A model generated the notes under the pieces. It was not told the DNA's origin. It saw nothing but the letters and a program-made list of their open reading frames with translations, and made no database searches. The translations under genes and the position numbers were made by a program. This document shows positions 39,965-63,931 of a DNA stretch of 64,000 bases, in pieces. Origin of the DNA: a phage; assembly GCA_019326865.1 (NCBI GenBank), contig GCA_019326865.1_4101.1. One strand, given 5' to 3'. Each line of letters starts with the position of its first letter. Position 1 is the stretch's first letter.

Positions 39965-40002
39965 ACATTTTAAAGCATTTTAATAATCAATTTTTTCAGT
40001 TC

Positions 40003-40010
40003 TATAAATA
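40003..40010 (+). promoter_or_regulatory. T4-type late promoter (TATAAATA) for major capsid gene
   Basis: Exact box 46 nt upstream of ATG 40056. Confidence 0.6.
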
Positions 40011-40055
40011 ATATCATACTGAAAAACGAATATAACATCTTTAAGGAGATATATA

Positions 40056-41231
40056 ATGTCACAACTACTAAATGAATCCAAATGGGTAGCAGTAAAAGAG
40101 AAACTAGTTGAAGGTCTACAGGGTACTCGTAAGTCTGTAATGGAAACTGTTCTTGATAACCATCGTAAAGTTATGCTAACTGAATCCGCAACTTCTGGTG
40201 CAACTACCGCTGGTAATATCGCTACACTAAACAAAGTGATTCTACCAATTATGCGTCGTGTAATGCCAACTGTTATTGCTAACGAAATTATCGGTGTTCA
40301 GCCTATGACTGGTCCAGTCGGTCAAATTCACACCCTACGTGTACAATATGCTGATAATGCACCTGGTGTTATCGCTGGTGAAGAAATGCTTTCTCCATAC
40401 AAAATCGCTAAATCCTACTCTGGTGAACTAAATTCTGATAACAGCAATCCTCAAGCTGCTCCTACTAGCCAACTAGAAGGTACTATGGGTCGTCGCGTTA
40501 ACATCCGTATTCTACGTGAAACTGTTGAAGCGAAATCTCGTCGTCTATCTGCACGTTGGACTGTTGAATCTGCACAAGATGCTCAATCCCAACATGGTGT
40601 TGACGTTGAAGCAGAACTAATGGCTGCAATCGCTCAAGAAGTTACCGTAGAAATCGACCAAGAGCTACTAAGCCGTCTACGTGCACTACCAGGTGCTGCT
40701 GCTGTAACTTATGACCAATCTAAAGTTACTGGTGTTGCAACCTTCGTTGGTGATGAGCACGCTGCTCTAGCAACTCTAATTAACCGTCAAGCAAACGAAG
40801 TTGCTCGTCGTACTAAGCGTGGTGCTGCAAACTGGGCTGTTGTTTCCCCAACTGCACTAACCATTCTACAATCTGCTACTACTTCTAGCTTTGCACGTAC
40901 CACTGAAGGTACTTTCGAAGCACCAACTAACGTTAAGTTTGTAGGTACTCTAAACAGCACTATGCGTATTTTTGTTGATACTTATGCAAGTGATTCAGAA
41001 GATATTCTAATTGGTTATAAAGGTAATGCAGAAACTGATGCTGGTGTGTTTTATTGCCCATACATCCCACTAATGGCGTCCGGTACTGTAATGGACCCTA
41101 ACACTGGAGAACTCGTAACCACTTTCTTAACCAGATACGGGTACGTTCAGTTGACCGATAGCACCAGTTCACTAGGTAACGCTGCTGACTACTACAGCAA
41201 AATCGCTATCAAAAACGTTACTTTCATGTAA
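40056..41231 (+). CDS. major capsid protein gp23-like (391 aa)
   Basis: IANEIIGVQPMTGPVGQIHTLRVQYA, VEAKSRRLSARWTVESAQD and FVDTYASDSEDILIGYKGNAETDAGVFYCPYIP match T4 gp23 segments as recalled; TATAAATA late promoter, GGAG RBS, strong terminator downstream. Confidence 0.9.
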   Translation: MSQLLNESKWVAVKEKLVEGLQGTRKSVMETVLDNHRKVMLTESATSGATTAGNIATLNKVILPIMRRVMPTVIANEIIGVQPMTGPVGQIHTLRVQYADNAPGVIAGEEMLSPYKIAKSYSGELNSDNSNPQAAPTSQLEGTMGRRVNIRILRETVEAKSRRLSARWTVESAQDAQSQHGVDVEAELMAAIAQEVTVEIDQELLSRLRALPGAAAVTYDQSKVTGVATFVGDEHAALATLINRQANEVARRTKRGAANWAVVSPTALTILQSATTSSFARTTEGTFEAPTNVKFVGTLNSTMRIFVDTYASDSEDILIGYKGNAETDAGVFYCPYIPLMASGTVMDPNTGELVTTFLTRYGYVQLTDSTSSLGNAADYYSKIAIKNVTFM

Positions 41232-41275
41232 TATTGATTTTTGTAGAATTTATAGAATAAAAAACTTTTATACTA

Positions 41276-41301
41276 GGGACTCTTCGGAGTCCCTTTTTTT
41301 T
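41276..41301 (+). terminator. rho-independent terminator after major capsid gene
   Basis: GGGACTC-TTCG-GAGTCCC then T8. Confidence 0.85.
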
Positions 41302-41324
41302 GGTTTTTATATAACTAAAAGATC

Positions 41325-41353
41325 TTGACAGCACTTAACAATTGTAGTATCAT
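41325..41353 (+). promoter_or_regulatory. sigma70-like promoter for homing-endonuclease-like gene A
   Basis: TTGACA-N17-TATCAT just downstream of capsid terminator. Confidence 0.4.
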
Positions 41354-41387
41354 ACGTGTAAATAAAGAAAAGAACTCGGAGAAAATC

Positions 41388-42983
41388 GTGTTAGAAGAAA
41401 TCAAGAAGTTTTTATCAGAGAAAAATGTTCGTGGTGTTAAATCTGCTCTGCAAGCAAAATCTGTATACATTGAATTCCTGCGAGAGATGTTTGGTGATAT
41501 CGATCTTAATGAAATGATTTATATGGTATTGAATGATATTACTTCAGTGCCGAATGCTGAATGTGGTGACAAAGCTAAGTTTATAAGTATTACCGAAGGA
41601 TATTCTTACAAGTGCAATAAACCATTTCAAGGAAAAGGAAAATGCCTTATCTGTTGCTCCGCAGTTGCTAGGAAACGTAAAGAAACTTACAAAGAAAAAA
41701 CTGGTTATGATAACCCGGCACAGAATCCAGAAATTCAAAAGAAAATAGGGTATACCAATGAACAACGTTATGGCACTCGTATTGCTCAACAATCTGAACA
41801 AGTAAAGCAGAAATCAATAGAAACTAATATCAAAAAGTATGGCGTTGTTCATCCATCACAGTTGGAAAGTAATAAACAGCAACGTTTACAAACTGTACAA
41901 GAAAAGTATGGTATCAATAATGTATGGCAACTTAATAAAGGTCTTAGTGCACGTTATGAACAGTTTAAAACACGATTTGAACAGGATGGTAAATTTACTC
42001 TTTTAAGTGATGAATCCCATTATGATAATAGCAATGACGCAACTCATGCAATCATGCACTGGAAATGTAATGAATGTGGTAATGAGTTTGATAAAGTTGC
42101 TCTTTGCTTACGCTGCCCTAAGTGTGAACCATATTCATCCAGTACTGAAGAAGTTAATCTTTATAATTACATTACCTCTATCTATAGTGGTGTTGTTATT
42201 CAAAACAGCCGCAACATAATCAAAGGTAATGAAATTGATATTTTCATCCCAGAACTGAAACTTGGTATTGAGTTCAATGGTGAGTACTGGCATCGTGATG
42301 AAGTTCGTGGTAAAGACTATCATCAATCCAAATACTTCAAAATGAAGGAAGCAGGATACAAACTTATCACTATCTATAGTAATGAATGGTCAAATAAAAC
42401 TGAAATTGTTAAGAATCGTTTGAAAAGTTTGATTAGTGTGGATAGTAAAATCTATGCTCGTAAGTGTGAAGTTAGATTGGTTGTACATGAAGAATGTGAT
42501 AAATTTTTGTATGAACATCATATTCAAGGACCATGCCAATCATCAATCAAACTTGGACTTTACTATAATGATGATTTGGTTGCTTTGATGACATTTGGTG
42601 CACCACGATTTAACAAGCAGTATGAATATGAATTACTGCGTTATTGTTCTAAAGGAACAGTTGTTGGGGGTGCATCGAAACTGTTAAAACATTTTGAACG
42701 TATGTATCTTCCTAAATCTCTTCTTTCATACGCCGATATGAACTGGAGTACTGGTAATTTGTATGAAAAAATTGGTTTTACTTTAGAAGAAGTAACTCAA
42801 CCTGGTTATTTTTACTATGATAGAAAAAACGAAGTTGTTTATTCTCGCCATCAATGCCAAAAACAAAAACTTATTAAAAAATATAATTTTGATAGTTCTA
42901 TGACAGAGAAGGAAATGACAAAAGAATTAGGATACTTTAGAATCTATGATTGTGGTAACTTAGTTTATAAAAAGATTTACTAA
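41388..42983 (+). CDS. homing-endonuclease-like protein A: Cys-rich zinc-ribbon regions, tandem repeats, Vsr-like PD-(D/E)xK nuclease core
   Basis: IDIFIPELKLGIEFNGEYWH resembles the Vsr/DUF559 active-site region; repeats of form G..(N/H)P.Q......K........YG; own sigma70-like promoter; track start 41325 is TTG, GTG at 41388 has GGAG RBS; paralog at 62327. Confidence 0.55.
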   Translation: MLEEIKKFLSEKNVRGVKSALQAKSVYIEFLREMFGDIDLNEMIYMVLNDITSVPNAECGDKAKFISITEGYSYKCNKPFQGKGKCLICCSAVARKRKETYKEKTGYDNPAQNPEIQKKIGYTNEQRYGTRIAQQSEQVKQKSIETNIKKYGVVHPSQLESNKQQRLQTVQEKYGINNVWQLNKGLSARYEQFKTRFEQDGKFTLLSDESHYDNSNDATHAIMHWKCNECGNEFDKVALCLRCPKCEPYSSSTEEVNLYNYITSIYSGVVIQNSRNIIKGNEIDIFIPELKLGIEFNGEYWHRDEVRGKDYHQSKYFKMKEAGYKLITIYSNEWSNKTEIVKNRLKSLISVDSKIYARKCEVRLVVHEECDKFLYEHHIQGPCQSSIKLGLYYNDDLVALMTFGAPRFNKQYEYELLRYCSKGTVVGGASKLLKHFERMYLPKSLLSYADMNWSTGNLYEKIGFTLEEVTQPGYFYYDRKNEVVYSRHQCQKQKLIKKYNFDSSMTEKEMTKELGYFRIYDCGNLVYKKIY

Positions 42984-43000
42984 AATACGGGAGAATACGG

Positions 43001-43351
43001 ATGTTAACTGTATACAAATTTAACAAAGAAGAGTACTTAAAGAGTCAGTACTCAAATATAGAAATAAATGTTCCTTATGGTACGTTAGTTGGATATGATG
43101 AAGCCACTGAAACATTGTATTATAATGATGATAGATTGGATTATAGTTTAGATTCTTTCATAGAAGATATACTTAATACACAAACTGAAGATATGTTGTA
43201 TGAAGAATACATCGATCATTATAGAGAACGTATGTCGGTGCTGCATTCTGATGCTCCTGTACTAAACATAGCACAAGAACCATCGGAATTTCAGCCACAT
43301 AATCCTTTTCAACGTTTAATTGATATTGGTTTAAAATTCACTATTAGTTGA
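43001..43351 (+). CDS. hypothetical protein (116 aa)
   Basis: ORF with GGAG RBS. Confidence 0.5.
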   Translation: MLTVYKFNKEEYLKSQYSNIEINVPYGTLVGYDEATETLYYNDDRLDYSLDSFIEDILNTQTEDMLYEEYIDHYRERMSVLHSDAPVLNIAQEPSEFQPHNPFQRLIDIGLKFTIS

Positions 43352-43390
43352 TAGATAAATATCTCCATATTAATGATGGAGATTGAATCT

Positions 43391-43699
43391 ATGTCACAGA
43401 TATGTTATGTTATAATAAACTCTGCATGGCCTGACTATGTTAAGATTGGTTTCACTTCTAAATCTGAAATGACAGAGCGTTTGAGAACGTATCAGACAGC
43501 TACCCCGTTTCGTGATTTTGAAGTTTATCATGAAGTTCACTTTGAAGACGCACGTTTAGCTGAAAAAGAGATACATAAAAGGCTTAAACAAATGAATGCA
43601 ACTAGACAACCAAACACGGAGTGGTTTAAAATGTCTAAAAAAATAGCAGCAAACATCATTGATTCTGTGTGGGATGATATGGATAACGACTTGCTATAG
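43391..43699 (+). CDS. T5orf172 / GIY-YIG-like domain protein
   Basis: CYVIINSAWPDYVKIGFTSKSEMTERLRTYQT...EWF matches the T5orf172 pattern as recalled; 8-bp inverted repeat ATCTCCAT/ATGGAGAT overlaps the RBS. Confidence 0.55.
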   Translation: MSQICYVIINSAWPDYVKIGFTSKSEMTERLRTYQTATPFRDFEVYHEVHFEDARLAEKEIHKRLKQMNATRQPNTEWFKMSKKIAANIIDSVWDDMDNDLL

Positions 43700-43739
43700 G
43701 AATAAATATAGTATATATTAATCATAAAGGGATTTATAC

Positions 43740-45335
43740 ATGAGCATAAGTTTTAATAACCCATTGGATACAATGACCAGTACTGGTGCTAATGGTTCTT
43801 TAGAATTAATAGTGCTTGGTGGTTCACCAACTAATCCAAGACCTATTCGTTTTAATTCGTCATCAGTCATTATACCAGTAAAAACATTACCTACTGGTGA
43901 GCAAGGTGCAATGGTTTTTGATAGAAATGAATTAGTTTTGAAGTATCATAACGGTACAAGTTGGGTTGCAGTATATGATACTGATACTATTTTGGAACCA
44001 ATTAGAATTTCATTGGATGAAGTAAATCGAAAATTAAATTTAAAAGTAGAAACCGTATCATATAGTAGCAGTGCTGTTCCAAGTGCAAGTATAAGTGGGA
44101 CTAATTTAAATATTGTATTCCCTACTGTAGCTACTGGCGGTTCAGGACCAACTGGACTTTACACTTCACTAAAACCTGGTGCTATTACACAATACGCATT
44201 GACATCTGGACAAAACGTTGCTAGTATACGTGAACAAATGTCGGGTCAAACCAATGGACAAAATGGTCGCAATGGCTCACAAGGTTCTCCGTGGAAAACA
44301 TCTGATGGTTGGTGTTTTGCTGATGGGATGTGGTGGCAATGGGAAGGCGAAAATGGTACAATTACTAAACAAGTACCAAACCTTAACAGAAACGCGTATT
44401 TAAAAGGAATATCCACATCAGGTGTAACTCAAATTGATGGTGTTATTAGTAGTAGTGGAAACATTAGCGGAACTGTTTTAAGTGTAGCACAGTTGCCATC
44501 TCACTCATTCAGTTTTAGTGGGACTACTAGTGCTGCTGGTCGTCATGGTCATAGTCAAGCACTAAAAGGTAATGACCGTAGTGGTCTAAATGCAATAACG
44601 TCGAGTAGAGATAATGGTATTCCAACTGTAATCAGTAATATTAATGAAGCACCTGACCACGTACACTCATTTAGTGGAAACACAAACACACTTGGTGGAA
44701 ATCAGCCACATTACCATAGCATTAGTAACGTTGATGTGGAACACTTTAACGTTGCATACCTATATAATATTGCTGAATCTAACGTTGCATTGAGCGAAAA
44801 AGTTGCAAATAAACGTTATGTACTGAAAACTGGTGATACAATGACTGGCTCATTGACTATTGCAAATAGTGCATCCATACAGTCAAATGATACATCATTA
44901 GTTCTTTATTTCCGTAATGCAAGTGGGGGCGAACGTGCAGCGGTATATCATAACTCATCAAACAACACCTTGAGATTACGTTCTGGTGGTGCAGAAGTAG
45001 CTGTAAACTCTTCGGGTAACTTGTCTGCTCCATCTTTAACTGTTTCTAATAACTCAGCTACTGTTGGTGGCAAAAATATTGTTCGTTCGATTAACGGAAA
45101 TGCAGCAGATGGTAATGGTAATGTGAATATTAAAATTGAAACTGGTGCAATTACTGCTATGAAATTTGGTGGTAAACAACAACTTAGTGTTTCTGATAAC
45201 ATATATCGTTCAGGATGGGTAATCACTGGTTGGGCAAATGGTGATAAAAAAGAACTACGTGGTGCTGGTTATTGGTCTGCTCCATTGTATTATTTGATTG
45301 GTAGTTCTTGGTACATCATCCCAACCGATAATTAA
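43740..45335 (+). CDS. tail fiber protein with HxH receptor-binding-type C-terminal region
   Basis: Gly/Ser/Thr/Asn-rich composition; PSHSFSFSGTT, GRHGHS, PDHVHSFSG, QPHYH motifs resembling tail-collar/short-fiber tip domains. Confidence 0.6.
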   Translation: MSISFNNPLDTMTSTGANGSLELIVLGGSPTNPRPIRFNSSSVIIPVKTLPTGEQGAMVFDRNELVLKYHNGTSWVAVYDTDTILEPIRISLDEVNRKLNLKVETVSYSSSAVPSASISGTNLNIVFPTVATGGSGPTGLYTSLKPGAITQYALTSGQNVASIREQMSGQTNGQNGRNGSQGSPWKTSDGWCFADGMWWQWEGENGTITKQVPNLNRNAYLKGISTSGVTQIDGVISSSGNISGTVLSVAQLPSHSFSFSGTTSAAGRHGHSQALKGNDRSGLNAITSSRDNGIPTVISNINEAPDHVHSFSGNTNTLGGNQPHYHSISNVDVEHFNVAYLYNIAESNVALSEKVANKRYVLKTGDTMTGSLTIANSASIQSNDTSLVLYFRNASGGERAAVYHNSSNNTLRLRSGGAEVAVNSSGNLSAPSLTVSNNSATVGGKNIVRSINGNAADGNGNVNIKIETGAITAMKFGGKQQLSVSDNIYRSGWVITGWANGDKKELRGAGYWSAPLYYLIGSSWYIIPTDN

Positions 45336-53585: not shown

Positions 53586-59936
<6,351 letters not shown>

Positions 59937-60024
59937 GTAAACCGTCAAAGGAACAATGAAGTTTCTAAGACAATTGAAGCCAATTAACAAATAACAAAGA
60001 AACCCAAAATCAAGGAAGAAATAT

Positions 60025-61083
60025 ATGAAATCTCTAGCTGAAATTCGTGCACACCTAAAAGCAGAACAAGAAAAAGCAGAAGCACAAAAGAATGGTACAT
60101 TCACTGGTGAGCGTAAAGCTGATTCGTTTCTAGCTTTCTGGAACGTACCTTACAATGAACCACTAAATCTACGTTTTCTACCAGATGCTGATGAGTCCAA
60201 CCCATTCTTCTGGCGTGAACGTGACATGATCAACCTAACATTCAATGGTGTAGTCGGTATGCACACTGATAAAGTAACCGTACAAGTACCTTGTAATGAA
60301 ATGTGGGTTCCTAAATCTTGTCCGGTTCTGAAAGAAGTACGTCAATGGTTCCAAAGTGCGAATGAAACAGGGAATGAAGAACTAAAAGCAATGGCAGGTC
60401 GTTACTGGAAGAAAAAAACTTATCTAATGCAATGCTTTATTGCACCAGATAGTGTTGCAGTAAAAGACGACATTGCACCAGAAAATCCAATTCGCCGTAT
60501 TCTAGCTAACAAAGATATCTTTGATAAAGTTAAATCTATCCTACTAAACCCAGGTATCAAAGAATCCCCAACTCACTACGTTCAAGGTCGTGATTTTGGT
60601 ATTGTTAAAACTAAGAACGGTGGTGGATATAATAGCTACGACATGTCACAATTCTCCATGTCAGAGCGTCCACTAAACGAAGAAGAACTAGCAGCAATCG
60701 AAAAATATGGTCTATTCAATCTAAATGATTTTATGCCAAAACAACCAACTCCAGAAGAGTTGAAAGCAATCGAAGAAATGTTCGAAGCATCAGTAAATGG
60801 TGAAGCATATGATCCAGCACGTTGGGCATTTGCATATCGTCCAGCAGGTGTACCAAAGCCTAACACTGGAACTACCACTGTCACTGAATCAAAACCAACT
60901 CCTGCTCCAGTACAACAAGAGTCAACACCTGCACCAGTAGCACCTACTGTTCCAGTTACACCAGCACCACAAGCTGCTCCTGTAACCCCAGTCGCTACAC
61001 CAGCAGCATCTACGACTGAAGCACCAAAAGAACAACTATCTGCATCTGCACTAGTTGCTCGTTTGAAACAACAAGGTAAGTAA
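60025..61083 (+). CDS. single-stranded DNA-binding protein gp32-like
   Basis: LNLRFLPDADESNPFFW resembles the gp32 motif as recalled; H/C cluster MHTDKVTVQVPCNEMWVPKSCP (possible zinc site); Pro/Thr/Ala-rich tail. Confidence 0.65.
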   Translation: MKSLAEIRAHLKAEQEKAEAQKNGTFTGERKADSFLAFWNVPYNEPLNLRFLPDADESNPFFWRERDMINLTFNGVVGMHTDKVTVQVPCNEMWVPKSCPVLKEVRQWFQSANETGNEELKAMAGRYWKKKTYLMQCFIAPDSVAVKDDIAPENPIRRILANKDIFDKVKSILLNPGIKESPTHYVQGRDFGIVKTKNGGGYNSYDMSQFSMSERPLNEEELAAIEKYGLFNLNDFMPKQPTPEELKAIEEMFEASVNGEAYDPARWAFAYRPAGVPKPNTGTTTVTESKPTPAPVQQESTPAPVAPTVPVTPAPQAAPVTPVATPAASTTEAPKEQLSASALVARLKQQGK

Positions 61084-61102
61084 TAGTTTTTTGAAAAGTT
61101 AA

Positions 61103-61130
61103 GGGGCAACGGAGTTTGCCCCGTTTTATT
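61103..61130 (+). terminator. rho-independent terminator between gp32-like and uvsX
   Basis: GGGGCAA-cggagt-TTGCCCC then GTTTTATTT. Confidence 0.7.
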
Positions 61131-61153
61131 TCATAAAATTCAAGGAGAGAATT

Positions 61154-62275
61154 ATGAAAATGACAAGTGGTTTTGCGAACATTCTTAAAAACAGTACTGG
61201 TAGTGTAAAAAAGAATACTGGTGTTAGTGTTGGATTTCATGATCCAGATACATGGGTTAGTACTGGTAACTATGCACTAAATTACCGTATCAGTGGTTAT
61301 TTTGACCGTGGTATCCCACTAGGTAAAGTAACTATGTTTGCTGGTGAATCAGGTAGTGGTAAATCTTTTATTGTATCCGGTAACATCGCACGTGAAGCTC
61401 AACAACAAGGTATTTTTGTTGTAATGATTGACACAGAGAATGCTTTGGATTCAGATTGGCTACAAGCTCTTGGTGTTGACACTTCTGAAGAAAAACTTCT
61501 TAAAGTTAATATGGGTATGATTGGTGATGTAGCCAAATTCACTTATGAATTTATTGAAGGATATCGCAAAGAGTACGAAAATACACCTAAAGATGAACGC
61601 CAAAAAGTATTGTTCATTATCGATTCGATTGGTATGCTTAATACTGAAGTATCTAATGATCAAATGAAGGCTGGTAATCTTAAAGGTGATATGGGACATA
61701 AACCTAAGCAGCTAAAAGCATATATTACTAACTGTGTGAATTCTATTGGTTCACTAAATATTGGAATGGTTTGTGTGAACCATTCGTATGAATCACAGGA
61801 TATGTTTAATCCAGATCCTAAAGTGTCTGGTGGTAGTGGTTTGATTTATGCATCATCAATGGTGATTGCAATGGGTAAACTAAAACTAAAAGAAGATGAG
61901 GATGGTAATAAAACTTCCGATGTGAGTGGTATTCGCTCCAAATGTAAAGTTATGAAAACTCGTTATAATAAACCATTCGAGGAAGTCGAGATTAAGATTC
62001 CTTGGGATAAAGGTATGGACCCGCGTAGTGGTTTGTTGGATATGTTTGAAAAATATGGACTTATTGTTAAATCAGGTAACCGATTGATGTATGTTGATAT
62101 CGACACTGGTGAGCAAATCTTGAAATACCGCAAAGAATGGATGCGTAACGATGATTTATGTTTGGATTTGGTAATGCATCAATTTAAACGTCACCCACTG
62201 ATTGAAGAAGTCAAAGAGGAAGAAAAAGGTGATGAATCTTTTGGTGTAGATAGTTCAACTGATAGTACTGAATAA
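61154..62275 (+). CDS. uvsX: RecA-like recombinase UvsX
   Basis: Walker A GESGSGKS, VNHSYESQDMF and KGMDPRSGLLDMF match T4 UvsX segments as recalled. Confidence 0.9.
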   Translation: MKMTSGFANILKNSTGSVKKNTGVSVGFHDPDTWVSTGNYALNYRISGYFDRGIPLGKVTMFAGESGSGKSFIVSGNIAREAQQQGIFVVMIDTENALDSDWLQALGVDTSEEKLLKVNMGMIGDVAKFTYEFIEGYRKEYENTPKDERQKVLFIIDSIGMLNTEVSNDQMKAGNLKGDMGHKPKQLKAYITNCVNSIGSLNIGMVCVNHSYESQDMFNPDPKVSGGSGLIYASSMVIAMGKLKLKEDEDGNKTSDVSGIRSKCKVMKTRYNKPFEEVEIKIPWDKGMDPRSGLLDMFEKYGLIVKSGNRLMYVDIDTGEQILKYRKEWMRNDDLCLDLVMHQFKRHPLIEEVKEEEKGDESFGVDSSTDSTE

Positions 62276-62326: not shown

Positions 62327-63931
62327 ATGATTGATATATCCAAATTATATAATATGATAAAAGACATTCCCCATCCTAATTCTCGTAAAAAAATACTAAT
62401 GGGGGAAATTTCCGAAGAAGATATGATGGAGTTCGGAACAACTGAATTAAAGCAGATTGATTATTGTATAATGAATAAATTAAAACATGTACCATTAGCA
62501 CCGTGCGGGGAAAATAAAAAATACCATAATGGAAAATATTTGAATGTATGTGAAAAATATAAACTTGGTGACAATCATTCATGTATAGTCTGTCATGAAA
62601 ATAAGACAAAAGAAACATTATCTAAAATGAAGAAAACTTCTTTATCTAAATATCAAACTGAATTTCCTAATCAGTCCATTGATGTAAAAAGAAAGATACG
62701 AGAAAATTCTAATTTTACTGAAGATGAAAAAAACGCAATTAATGAAAAGAAAAAAGAAACATCATTGAAACAATTCGGTACTGAACATCCAATGAAGAAT
62801 AGTACTGTTAAGTTGACACAAATTCAGTCCAGAAAAAAGACACAAGAGCAAACTAACAACAAAAGAATTAAAACTTTAATGCAGAAAAAAACATTAAATG
62901 TTTCTGAAAATTTGGATAAATCAAAATATGAAATTGTTGAATTGCGATTGGGGACTAATGTAAAAAGTACATTCAGGTGTTTACAGTGTGGACAACAATT
63001 TGATGCATTAAGTCATTGGGGATGTAAAGTTGTTTACTGTCCACAATGTGATGTTTCACCTATGCGTTCTAATATGGAAAATGATGTTGTATCTATCATA
63101 AAAGAAATAGAACCAACTATTGATATTGAACTTAATAATAGAAAAATCATAAAACCAAAAGAAATAGATATATATTTGCCTAAGTATAATTTGGGTATAG
63201 AAGTTAATGGAATGTACTGGCATTCTGATAAATTTAAGTCAGAAAACTATCATCAAGATAAAGTTAAAGCTGCTATGTCATCTGGAATGAAATTATTAAC
63301 AATTTATGATTATGATCTTTCAAAAAACAAAGATGTAATAGTTTCAATGATAAAAAATTCAATGAATAAATCTTCTTTTAATGTTTATGCAAGAAAATGT
63401 GAAATTAAAGAAGTACCTAAAGTTGAAGAACGTAATTTCCTAAACACCTATCATATTCAAGGATTTGTTGGTTCAAATATTTGTTATGGTTTGTATTATA
63501 ATTGCGAGTTAGTATCATTAATGTCTTTTGGTAAGCCAAGATTTAATAAAAATTTTGAATATGAAATTATACGATTTTGTTCAAAAGGTAATGTTGTTGG
63601 TGCAGCAGGGAAGTTATTAAAACATTTTGAGATAACTATCAAGCCTAAGTCATTGATTACATATGCTGATTTACGATATGGATATGGTAAAACTTATGAA
63701 AAAATAGGTTTTGAATACAAATATATTACTAAACCTGGATATTTTTATGTTAATGGAAAGGGTGATGTGGTTACTCGATATCAAGCACAAAAACATAAAC
63801 TTCTGAAGAAATACCCAGAATATCAAAATGAGACAAACATTACTGAATATGATATAATGGGGTCTGAAGGATATTTAAAGATATATGATTGTGGAAACGC
63901 TGTGTATGTGAAGGAATACAACAATGAATAA
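62327..63931 (+). CDS. homing-endonuclease-like protein B (paralog of 41388-42983)
   Basis: Same architecture: CxxC pairs, IDIYLPKYNLGIEVNGMYWH nuclease motif, conserved C-terminal domain; ATG 62327 with AGGA RBS just after the uvsX terminator. Confidence 0.55.
   Translation: MIDISKLYNMIKDIPHPNSRKKILMGEISEEDMMEFGTTELKQIDYCIMNKLKHVPLAPCGENKKYHNGKYLNVCEKYKLGDNHSCIVCHENKTKETLSKMKKTSLSKYQTEFPNQSIDVKRKIRENSNFTEDEKNAINEKKKETSLKQFGTEHPMKNSTVKLTQIQSRKKTQEQTNNKRIKTLMQKKTLNVSENLDKSKYEIVELRLGTNVKSTFRCLQCGQQFDALSHWGCKVVYCPQCDVSPMRSNMENDVVSIIKEIEPTIDIELNNRKIIKPKEIDIYLPKYNLGIEVNGMYWHSDKFKSENYHQDKVKAAMSSGMKLLTIYDYDLSKNKDVIVSMIKNSMNKSSFNVYARKCEIKEVPKVEERNFLNTYHIQGFVGSNICYGLYYNCELVSLMSFGKPRFNKNFEYEIIRFCSKGNVVGAAGKLLKHFEITIKPKSLITYADLRYGYGKTYEKIGFEYKYITKPGYFYVNGKGDVVTRYQAQKHKLLKKYPEYQNETNITEYDIMGSEGYLKIYDCGNAVYVKEYNNE

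Follow-up and report, generated by a model that had tools for sequence, protein, structure and literature searches.

Introduction

The homing endonuclease Hef of the T4-like phage U5 was reportedly described by Sandegren, Nord and Sjoberg in 2005. Enzymes of this kind are routinely annotated in large phages, and the Hef-like endonucleases of RaK2, K64-1, PA5oct, Campylobacter CP220/CPX and LIMEstone (F-LimIII etc.) are free-standing, lie beside an essential gene and occur in several copies per large genome. U5 Hef has been reported to cleave nrdB beside its own locus (reviewed in PMC2988022), and Hef-type enzymes have been assigned to the Vsr-like EDxHD family (Taylor et al., PMC3239194), whose prototype, I-Bth0305I (structure 3r3p), is intron-encoded, with NUMOD-type motifs at the N-terminus and the nuclease at the end. 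The present study concerns a Hef-type gene located directly behind the major capsid gene in a 64,000-nucleotide (nt) stretch of phage DNA (GenBank assembly GCA_019326865.1, contig GCA_019326865.1_4101.1), hereafter the window, which belongs to an Asteriusvirus-like jumbo coliphage of the 121Q/PBECO4 group.

The literature on this one protein family contains two descriptions that cannot be reconciled, one of a homing endonuclease (Hef), the other of a fusion of Mom with a restriction enzyme. Mom of phage Mu, a tRNA-dependent DNA adenine aminoacyltransferase of the GNAT superfamily (structure 8BV8), stands alone under the control of Com. Iyer et al. (2021; PMC7824862) read the jumbo-phage fusion as a momylation and restriction pair, with five such enzymes in PA5oct. 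In the literature searched, no paper was found that joins the Hef-like enzymes with the GNAT/Mom reading. Homing endonucleases combining a T5orf172 domain with CapR/DUF4379 zinc fingers, for their part, are on record from ICP1 and T5-like phages, with locations close to capsid genes (PMC10448857).

Fold, full-length homology and genomic behaviour place the window gene in the Hef-type branch of EDxHD/Vsr-like homing endonucleases. It is most likely a free-standing homing endonuclease gene carried in a small cassette, composed of a spacer, an early-type promoter of its own and the gene, between the capsid terminator and the next gene. Its N-terminal cysteine cluster, DUF7487 helical repeats and zinc ribbon would place the protein on a long DNA target, and the Vsr-like EDxHD domain would cut the gene-less allele of a co-infecting relative. 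Recombinational repair, presumably by the phage's own UvsX, UvsY and gp32, would then copy the cassette, together with part of the adjoining DNA, into the genome that was cut. With Hef-type endonucleases known since 2005, the gene itself adds little; the main interest beyond routine annotation lies in the role of its Mom-like domain, together with the competition for the insertion site and a probable target scar in the capsid gene.

Family assignment and gene start

An earlier note on the window, made from the sequence without database searches, had proposed a free-standing homing-endonuclease-like gene at this position, a proposal upheld here by the domains and fold of the protein and by comparison with relatives.

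41388..42983 (+): Hef-type homing endonuclease gene, 531 amino acids (aa), with a GTG start and a Shine-Dalgarno sequence GGAG at 41378..41381, 6 nt upstream.

The match of the protein to PHROG 3339 ('homing endonuclease'; 2e-132) spans its full length. A tblastn comparison aligns residues 37-528 with U5 hef (93% coverage, 29.8% identity, E 1e-38), the homology over 93% of the length taking in the zinc ribbon, the Vsr-like nuclease and the C-terminal GNAT domain. Relatives were recovered by tblastn in 424 phage records, many of them annotated 'Hef-like homing endonuclease', and a metagenomic protein collection holds more than 2,700 homologues at E<=1e-5, including an identical protein of 531 aa (P0001). 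The AlphaFold2 (AF2) model, built on 56 homologues, is confident along the whole length (predicted local distance difference test, pLDDT, 92.7) and comprises five parts; family conservation counts given below refer to 56 homologues. Unlike U5 Hef, to which it is ~30% identical, the window protein has its own set of DUF7487 repeats N-terminally, and the sites used in the window are capsid/next-gene and uvsX/uvsY rather than nrdA/nrdB; the window protein is known from sequence and model.

The open reading frame delimited mechanically runs from 41325 to 42983 (+) and starts at TTG 41325. That start was rejected, as it falls inside the -35 box of the promoter, and both P0001 and the orthologue in phage ph0011 begin at the position of GTG 41388, which is most likely the true start. 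A wrong mechanical start, and the label 'hypothetical protein' that Escherichia phage UE-S1 gives to its Hef-type gene, are what could be expected of a chance open reading frame or an annotation artefact; this explanation is already refuted by the more than 2,700 homologues, the high-confidence multi-domain model, the conserved motifs and the PHROG 3339 match.

Domain architecture

The five parts of the protein are encoded as follows.

41388..41660 (+): four-helix region with a conserved cysteine cluster (C59, C76, C86), from the AF2 model and conservation; presumed to bind DNA.
41661..41981 (+): four to five 23-residue helical repeats (Pfam DUF7487, 1.7e-12); presumed extended DNA-recognition module.
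42051..42128 (+): CxxC...CxxC zinc ribbon, with C227, C230, C243 and C246 conserved.
42135..42437 (+): Vsr-like (EDxHD family) nuclease domain with E255, D284, N297, H302 and H312, from the 3r3p profile and Foldseek.
42447..42980 (+): Mom-like GNAT-fold domain of ~180 aa, from Foldseek, hhalign and Pfam Mom matches in homologues.

The catalytic domain of I-Bth0305I (3r3p) was the best match in the Protein Data Bank (PDB) in a profile search (E 1.9e-7), and ranked first in Foldseek for residues 1-350 (E 6.3e-4, template modelling score 0.77, root-mean-square deviation 3.0 A, 22% identity). E255, D284, N297 (the x position) and H302 stand at the expected EDxHD positions, as equivalents of E170, D196, N208 and H213 of I-Bth0305I. 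E255, D284 and H302 are conserved in 51-56/56 homologues, and 29/56 match Pfam MTES_1575. The motif that the earlier note had read as Vsr/DUF559-like, IDIFIPELKLGIEFNGEYWH (residues 283-302, nt 42234..42293), lies in this central domain with its Vsr-like EDxHD fold. Domain searches thereby bore out a nuclease (the 3r3p profile match) and not the NUMOD, HNH or GIY-YIG models also considered; without a Pfam or NCBIfam match to such a catalytic domain, an HNH or GIY-YIG assignment is ruled out. While sharing the catalytic fold of I-Bth0305I, the window protein differs from that intron-encoded enzyme in being free-standing, in having its nuclease flanked by a zinc ribbon on the N-terminal side and an additional GNAT domain of 180 aa on the C-terminal side, and in having a histidine at the position of D222.

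The CxxC zinc-ribbon pairs noticed earlier are present as C227-x2-C230 and C243-x2-C246, retained in 51-55/56 homologues, among which C59, C76 and C86 are also conserved. Tandem repeats had been noticed too and likened to NUMOD3. The repeats are there, four of 23 residues at approximately residues 92-184, coinciding with regularly spaced predicted helices (five in the AF2 model); their family, however, is DUF7487, found in 52 of the 56 homologues, and a NUMOD search of the Hef-type protein gave no match at E<=1, NUMOD3 included. For these N-terminal helical repeats Foldseek returned no confident PDB analogue. In the homologues P0075 and P0111 the DUF7487 region is swapped for other N-terminal modules, the pair of nuclease and GNAT domains being kept.

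Polymorphism of the insertion site

The elements around the gene are listed below.

40056..41231 (+): major capsid protein gene (gp23 family; Pfam Gp23, 5.5e-90), the conserved essential gene upstream of the insertion.
41232..41274 (+): spacer of 43 nt from the capsid stop codon to the terminator, defined by alignment.
41275..41302 (+): intrinsic terminator of the capsid gene, a stem-loop at 41275..41294 (8-base-pair (bp) stem, 5 G-C pairs) with a T-run.
41325..41353 (+): predicted sigma-70-like promoter TTGACA-N17-TATCAT, matching 11/12 consensus positions, part of the cassette.
43001..43351 (+): conserved 116-aa gene, whose ribosome-binding site (RBS)/ATG is the right edge of the insertion in the alignment.

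Across 40000-44000 the window is 98.4% identical to UE-S1 and 85-97% identical to ~60 relatives, among which the content between the capsid terminator and the ATG of the 116-aa gene varies. The site is empty in PBECO4, SD-6_S16, SD-2_S15 and fEgEco12, where a spacer of 73-118 bp separates the two genes. It holds a Hef-type gene in the window, UE-S1 (99.4%), the Logan contig L021 (100%) and ph0011 (65.6%), and an unrelated protein of 305-365 aa in 121Q, Turkey3, phAPEC6, WPEC3, UB, E9.1, slurp01, WPEC5 and SHEFM2K; TH47 probably has an unrelated occupant as well, judging by the length of its unannotated insert. The occupants scanned (121Q, E9.1 and SHEFM2K) contain a T5orf172 (GIY-YIG-like) domain, accompanied in 121Q and E9.1 by DUF4379/CapR-type zinc fingers. 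The T5orf172 + CapR/DUF4379 endonucleases of 121Q, E9.1, SHEFM2K and others thus share the intergenic site by the capsid gene with the Hef-type protein, to which they are unrelated and from which they differ in nuclease fold, as competitors for the site. Insert edges are exact in the alignments, on the left directly past the T-run of the terminator and on the right at the RBS/ATG of the 116-aa gene, and the terminator is kept in all relatives, those with an empty site included. The placement first described, between a capsid terminator and the next gene, is therefore borne out by the stem-loop and T-run and by the 116-aa gene that follows. The presence/absence polymorphism at the gp23 junction on which the earlier note had made its claim depend was likewise found, in the form of empty, Hef-type and T5orf172-type alleles; the gene is not universal at the locus, PBECO4-type relatives being empty.

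The 43-nt spacer occurs in this version only in UE-S1 and L021, whose Hef allele is that of the window, and in the other relatives the spacer is unrelated; although upstream of the terminator, the 43-nt version probably arrived with the Hef cassette. The promoter sequence reported earlier is present as listed. The pattern alone is unremarkable, with 2 matches in 64 kb vs 0.71 expected, and it counts by its position because the rival cassettes of 121Q, Turkey3 and E9.1 have their own TTGACA/TTTACA-N17-TATAAT-like promoter at the same place. The ph0011 cassette also has a TTGACA -35 box there, and in the alignment no promoter-like sequence is evident in the SHEFM2K cassette or at the empty site. 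All told, three of the four cassette types aligned bear a sigma-70-like promoter at this position.

Together with the second copy and the capsid patch described below, comparison of these alleles provides strong evidence that the Hef-type gene is mobile, or was so recently. The locus offers a clear natural case in which two or more nuclease families, unrelated to each other, compete for a site by the capsid gene that is fixed to the base pair. For phage-therapy genomics, such cassettes account for local mosaicism in near-identical Asteriusvirus genomes.

A separate small gene of T5orf172 type lies two genes downstream of the Hef-type gene.

43373..43699 (+): protein of 108 aa made up of a T5orf172/MUG113 (GIY-YIG-like) domain (Pfam 3.7e-13) and nothing else.

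It is without a DNA-binding module. A gene of ~102 aa stands at this position in all relatives inspected, labelled 'GIY-YIG nuclease family protein' or 'T5orf172 domain protein' in PBECO4, 121Q, ph0011, fEgEco12 and slurp01, and the L021 counterpart has T5orf172/MUG113 Pfam matches. The 108-aa protein may be left over from the T5orf172 cassettes or act as their partner in trans.

A synonymous hypervariable patch in the capsid gene

41104..41188 (+): hypervariable stretch of ~80 nt in the capsid gene, at its 3' end, with synonymous changes only; a candidate for the target of a nuclease or for an immunity region.

In a comparison of 16 phages, nucleotide diversity (pi) within the capsid gene peaks at 41104..41181, a 78-nt stretch with a value of 0.186 vs a gene mean of 0.051. 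Between the window and UE-S1, 28/79 patch positions differ, compared with 8/1097 in the rest of the gene (Fisher p 2e-28). Against 121Q or UB the patch shows 4/79 differences, the rest of the gene differing at 31/1097 positions from 121Q and at 22/1097 from UB. The encoded peptide is identical across all phages, the changes including switches between Ser, Leu and Arg codon families. Since a patch of 121Q/UB type sits in the window within DNA that is UE-S1-like on either side, the exchanged tract is ~115 bp or less. Dense synonymous recoding limited to a short part of an essential gene, beside a hot spot for homing genes, is the expected product of target-site immunity combined with break-repair conversion, and the patch is a probable target scar. 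As such, these 80 nt of synonymous capsid sequence could guide experiments as a target map that is already at hand.

The second copy between uvsX and uvsY

61154..62275 (+): uvsX (RecA family), directly upstream of the second copy.
62327..63931 (+): second Hef-type gene, 534 aa, 36% identical to the first and of the same architecture, between uvsX and uvsY.

The earlier note had also placed a second copy of this architecture after uvsX, and the gene was found there, behind the RecA/UvsX-family gene. It is absent from the uvsX/uvsY junction in 51/51 relatives matching that region, UE-S1 and ph0011 included. The last ~300 nt of uvsX (61950..62275) are 77-84% identical to every relative, with ph0011 at 98-100% just upstream, and this diverged 3' end is consistent with a co-conversion tract. 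In the relatives uvsX and uvsY overlap as TAATGA; the insert rebuilds an overlap as ATGAATAA between the stop of the second copy and the start of uvsY (63923..63931), which would recreate the uvsX-uvsY translational coupling of the relatives.

Such arrangements bear on the idea that the homing gene has decayed or been domesticated, and is now immobile and kept for a side benefit, either the supply of a promoter and RBS to downstream genes or the exclusion of competing phages. Behind the capsid gene, the cassette gives the sole promoter-like site past the terminator and a new RBS for the 116-aa gene, the second copy restores coupling to uvsY through ATGAATAA, and the fifth catalytic position of the nuclease and parts of the GNAT site differ from the reference enzymes. 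Set against this, the frame is uninterrupted, the AF2 model has high confidence along its length and the core nuclease residues are retained, while a gene 99.4% identical in UE-S1 and identical in the Logan contig, with mosaic flanks, points to recent transfer; moreover, the downstream genes are expressed without the cassette in empty-site relatives. Loss of mobility is accordingly considered very unlikely.

The C-terminal Mom-like domain

Mu Mom (8BV8) holds ranks 1-2 in the Foldseek search of the PDB with the C-terminal domain (E 1e-5 over ~192 columns), ahead of dozens of GNATs and acetyltransferases. Comparison by hhalign with a 30-member Mom family alignment gave E 2e-5 and 77% probability, and with the single Mu Mom sequence only 3.8% probability. 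Sequence searches of the PDB found nothing for the domain as a single sequence and did not find 8BV8 with the Hef family profile, and Pfam Mom (PF25680) had no match at E<=1 to the window protein or its isolated C-terminal domain. The close homologues P0018, P0035 and P0075, on the other hand, exceed the Pfam Mom gathering threshold. Homology to Mom is accepted because these three pass that threshold, 26/56 homologues match Pfam Mom at E<=0.01, the family alignment gives the hhalign value above and Mom comes first in the fold search. The residues reported to matter in Mu Mom (PMC13219725) correspond as follows, with moderate confidence, as the mapping rests on the hhalign alignment of 77% probability.

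Mu Mom H58: window H378, conserved in 56/56.
Mu Mom R111: window R418, conserved in 56/56.
Mu Mom Y159: window Y459, conserved in 56/56.
Mu Mom S124: window S430, with 43 Ser and 13 Gly among the 56.
Mu Mom D149: window D450, conserved in 46/56.
Mu Mom R151: window M451/N452, the Arg being absent from the window protein.

The equivalents of H58, R111, S124, D149 and Y159 are thus shared with Mu Mom, from which the window domain differs in its identity of 13-14%, its score below the Pfam Mom threshold, its lack of the R151 equivalent, an Ile in place of Y59 and its fusion to a nuclease. The full set of Mom-essential residues (R111, S124, D149, R151) is found in only 17/56 family members vs 30/30 true Mom proteins, in which S124, D149 and R151 are invariant. 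The second copy (62327..63931) does have the Arg equivalent to R151, with Gly at the S124 position; in Mu Mom, R151A and S124A each abolish activity (PMC13219725). Constraint in the family lies mainly at the basic and aromatic positions R358, R407, R418, K431, R487, H378 and Y459.

This pattern, read through an alignment of moderate confidence, suggests that the domain descends from a Mom-like enzyme and suits nucleic-acid binding better than obligatory momylation. Most likely it has come from a DNA-modifying enzyme and serves to bind nucleic acid or to recognise the target, instead of working as a momylase in this copy. The residue census, in which three Mom-essential positions are variable while three others and several Arg/Lys are invariant, leads to the prediction that in most members the domain does not modify DNA but binds it and perhaps flips it. 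The earlier note had held that assignment of the conserved C-terminal region to a non-nuclease family would overturn the endonuclease claim. The C-terminus does belong to such a family, by its Mom-like GNAT fold, but the claim stands because the quoted nuclease motif sits in the central domain.

The same domain underlies the proposal of a single-chain modification and restriction enzyme, in which the Mom-like part would aminoacylate the phage's own adenines and the nuclease would attack unmodified DNA of the host or of a superinfecting phage, spread being a side effect. This is the prediction of Iyer et al. (PMC7824862), and their PA5oct is the phage in which tblastn gives five Hef-like copies. 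The best fold match, the invariant equivalents of H58, R111 and Y159, the mostly retained S124 and D149 and the presence of several copies per genome all agree with it. Most members nevertheless lack the full essential set that every true Mom has, and the two window copies each miss a residue whose replacement inactivates Mu Mom, the first the R151 equivalent and the second that of S124. Precise intergenic presence/absence, replacement at the same base pair by unrelated homing-type nucleases and local conversion of the flanks would not be expected of such an enzyme, and U5 Hef cuts near its own locus (PMC2988022). Taken together, a modification and restriction function appears quite unlikely. 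A mixed arrangement, in which the Mom-like domain is active at least in the ~1/3 of members with the full Mom set and aminoacylates an adenine within the enzyme's own recognition site, is also regarded as unlikely. If it held, chemical modification would protect the carrier genome from the nuclease it encodes, and the gene would amount to a 'homing restriction-modification' element in a single polypeptide; in copies such as the one behind the capsid gene, immunity would instead have moved to synonymous recoding of the capsid-gene target.

Several observations weigh against the homing endonuclease interpretation favoured here. The fifth EDxHD position, D222 in I-Bth0305I, is His312 rather than Asp, and His in 55/56 homologues, giving a motif ED-x-H-H. 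The strict conservation of the Mom active-site equivalents H378, R418 and Y459 in all 56 members could mean that the GNAT domain is catalytic. The window is identical to PBECO4, with its empty site, over the ~45 nt leading up to the capsid stop codon and over more than 100 nt at the start of the 116-aa gene; a target in those flanks could therefore not separate self from non-self. As a difference between self and empty allele was sought in the coding flanks adjoining the insertion and none was found (window vs PBECO4), attention moved to the capsid patch and the intergenic point. The patch haplotype of the window, in turn, is of 121Q type, whereas UE-S1 and L021 combine the same gene with another haplotype, and with haplotype and Hef gene mismatched the patch cannot be tied to one of the competing nucleases, if to any. 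For a homing endonuclease at this locus, the likeliest target would be the capsid patch or the intergenic insertion point itself.

Gene neighbourhood and mosaicism

Upstream of the Hef-type gene, the window encodes a prohead protease (Pfam Peptidase_S77), a gene annotated as scaffold in relatives and then the gp23-family major capsid gene. The capsid gene of Salmonella phage SD-2_S15 is annotated in two pieces of 996 + 159 nt, probably because the deposited genome contains a frameshift or a sequencing error.

Mosaicism extends to the region before the second copy. Within 57954..62275 the window is ~100% identical to UE-S1 until ~59500 and ~100% identical to ph0011 across ~59400-61900, and because identity shifts from one to the other near 59400-59500, the closest relative changes within a few kb. 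Downstream of the first copy, the tail-fibre gene (43740..45335, +) is 83-97% identical to all relatives and falls to ~35-50% in its last ~250 nt (from ~45100), which suggests a swapped receptor-binding tip.

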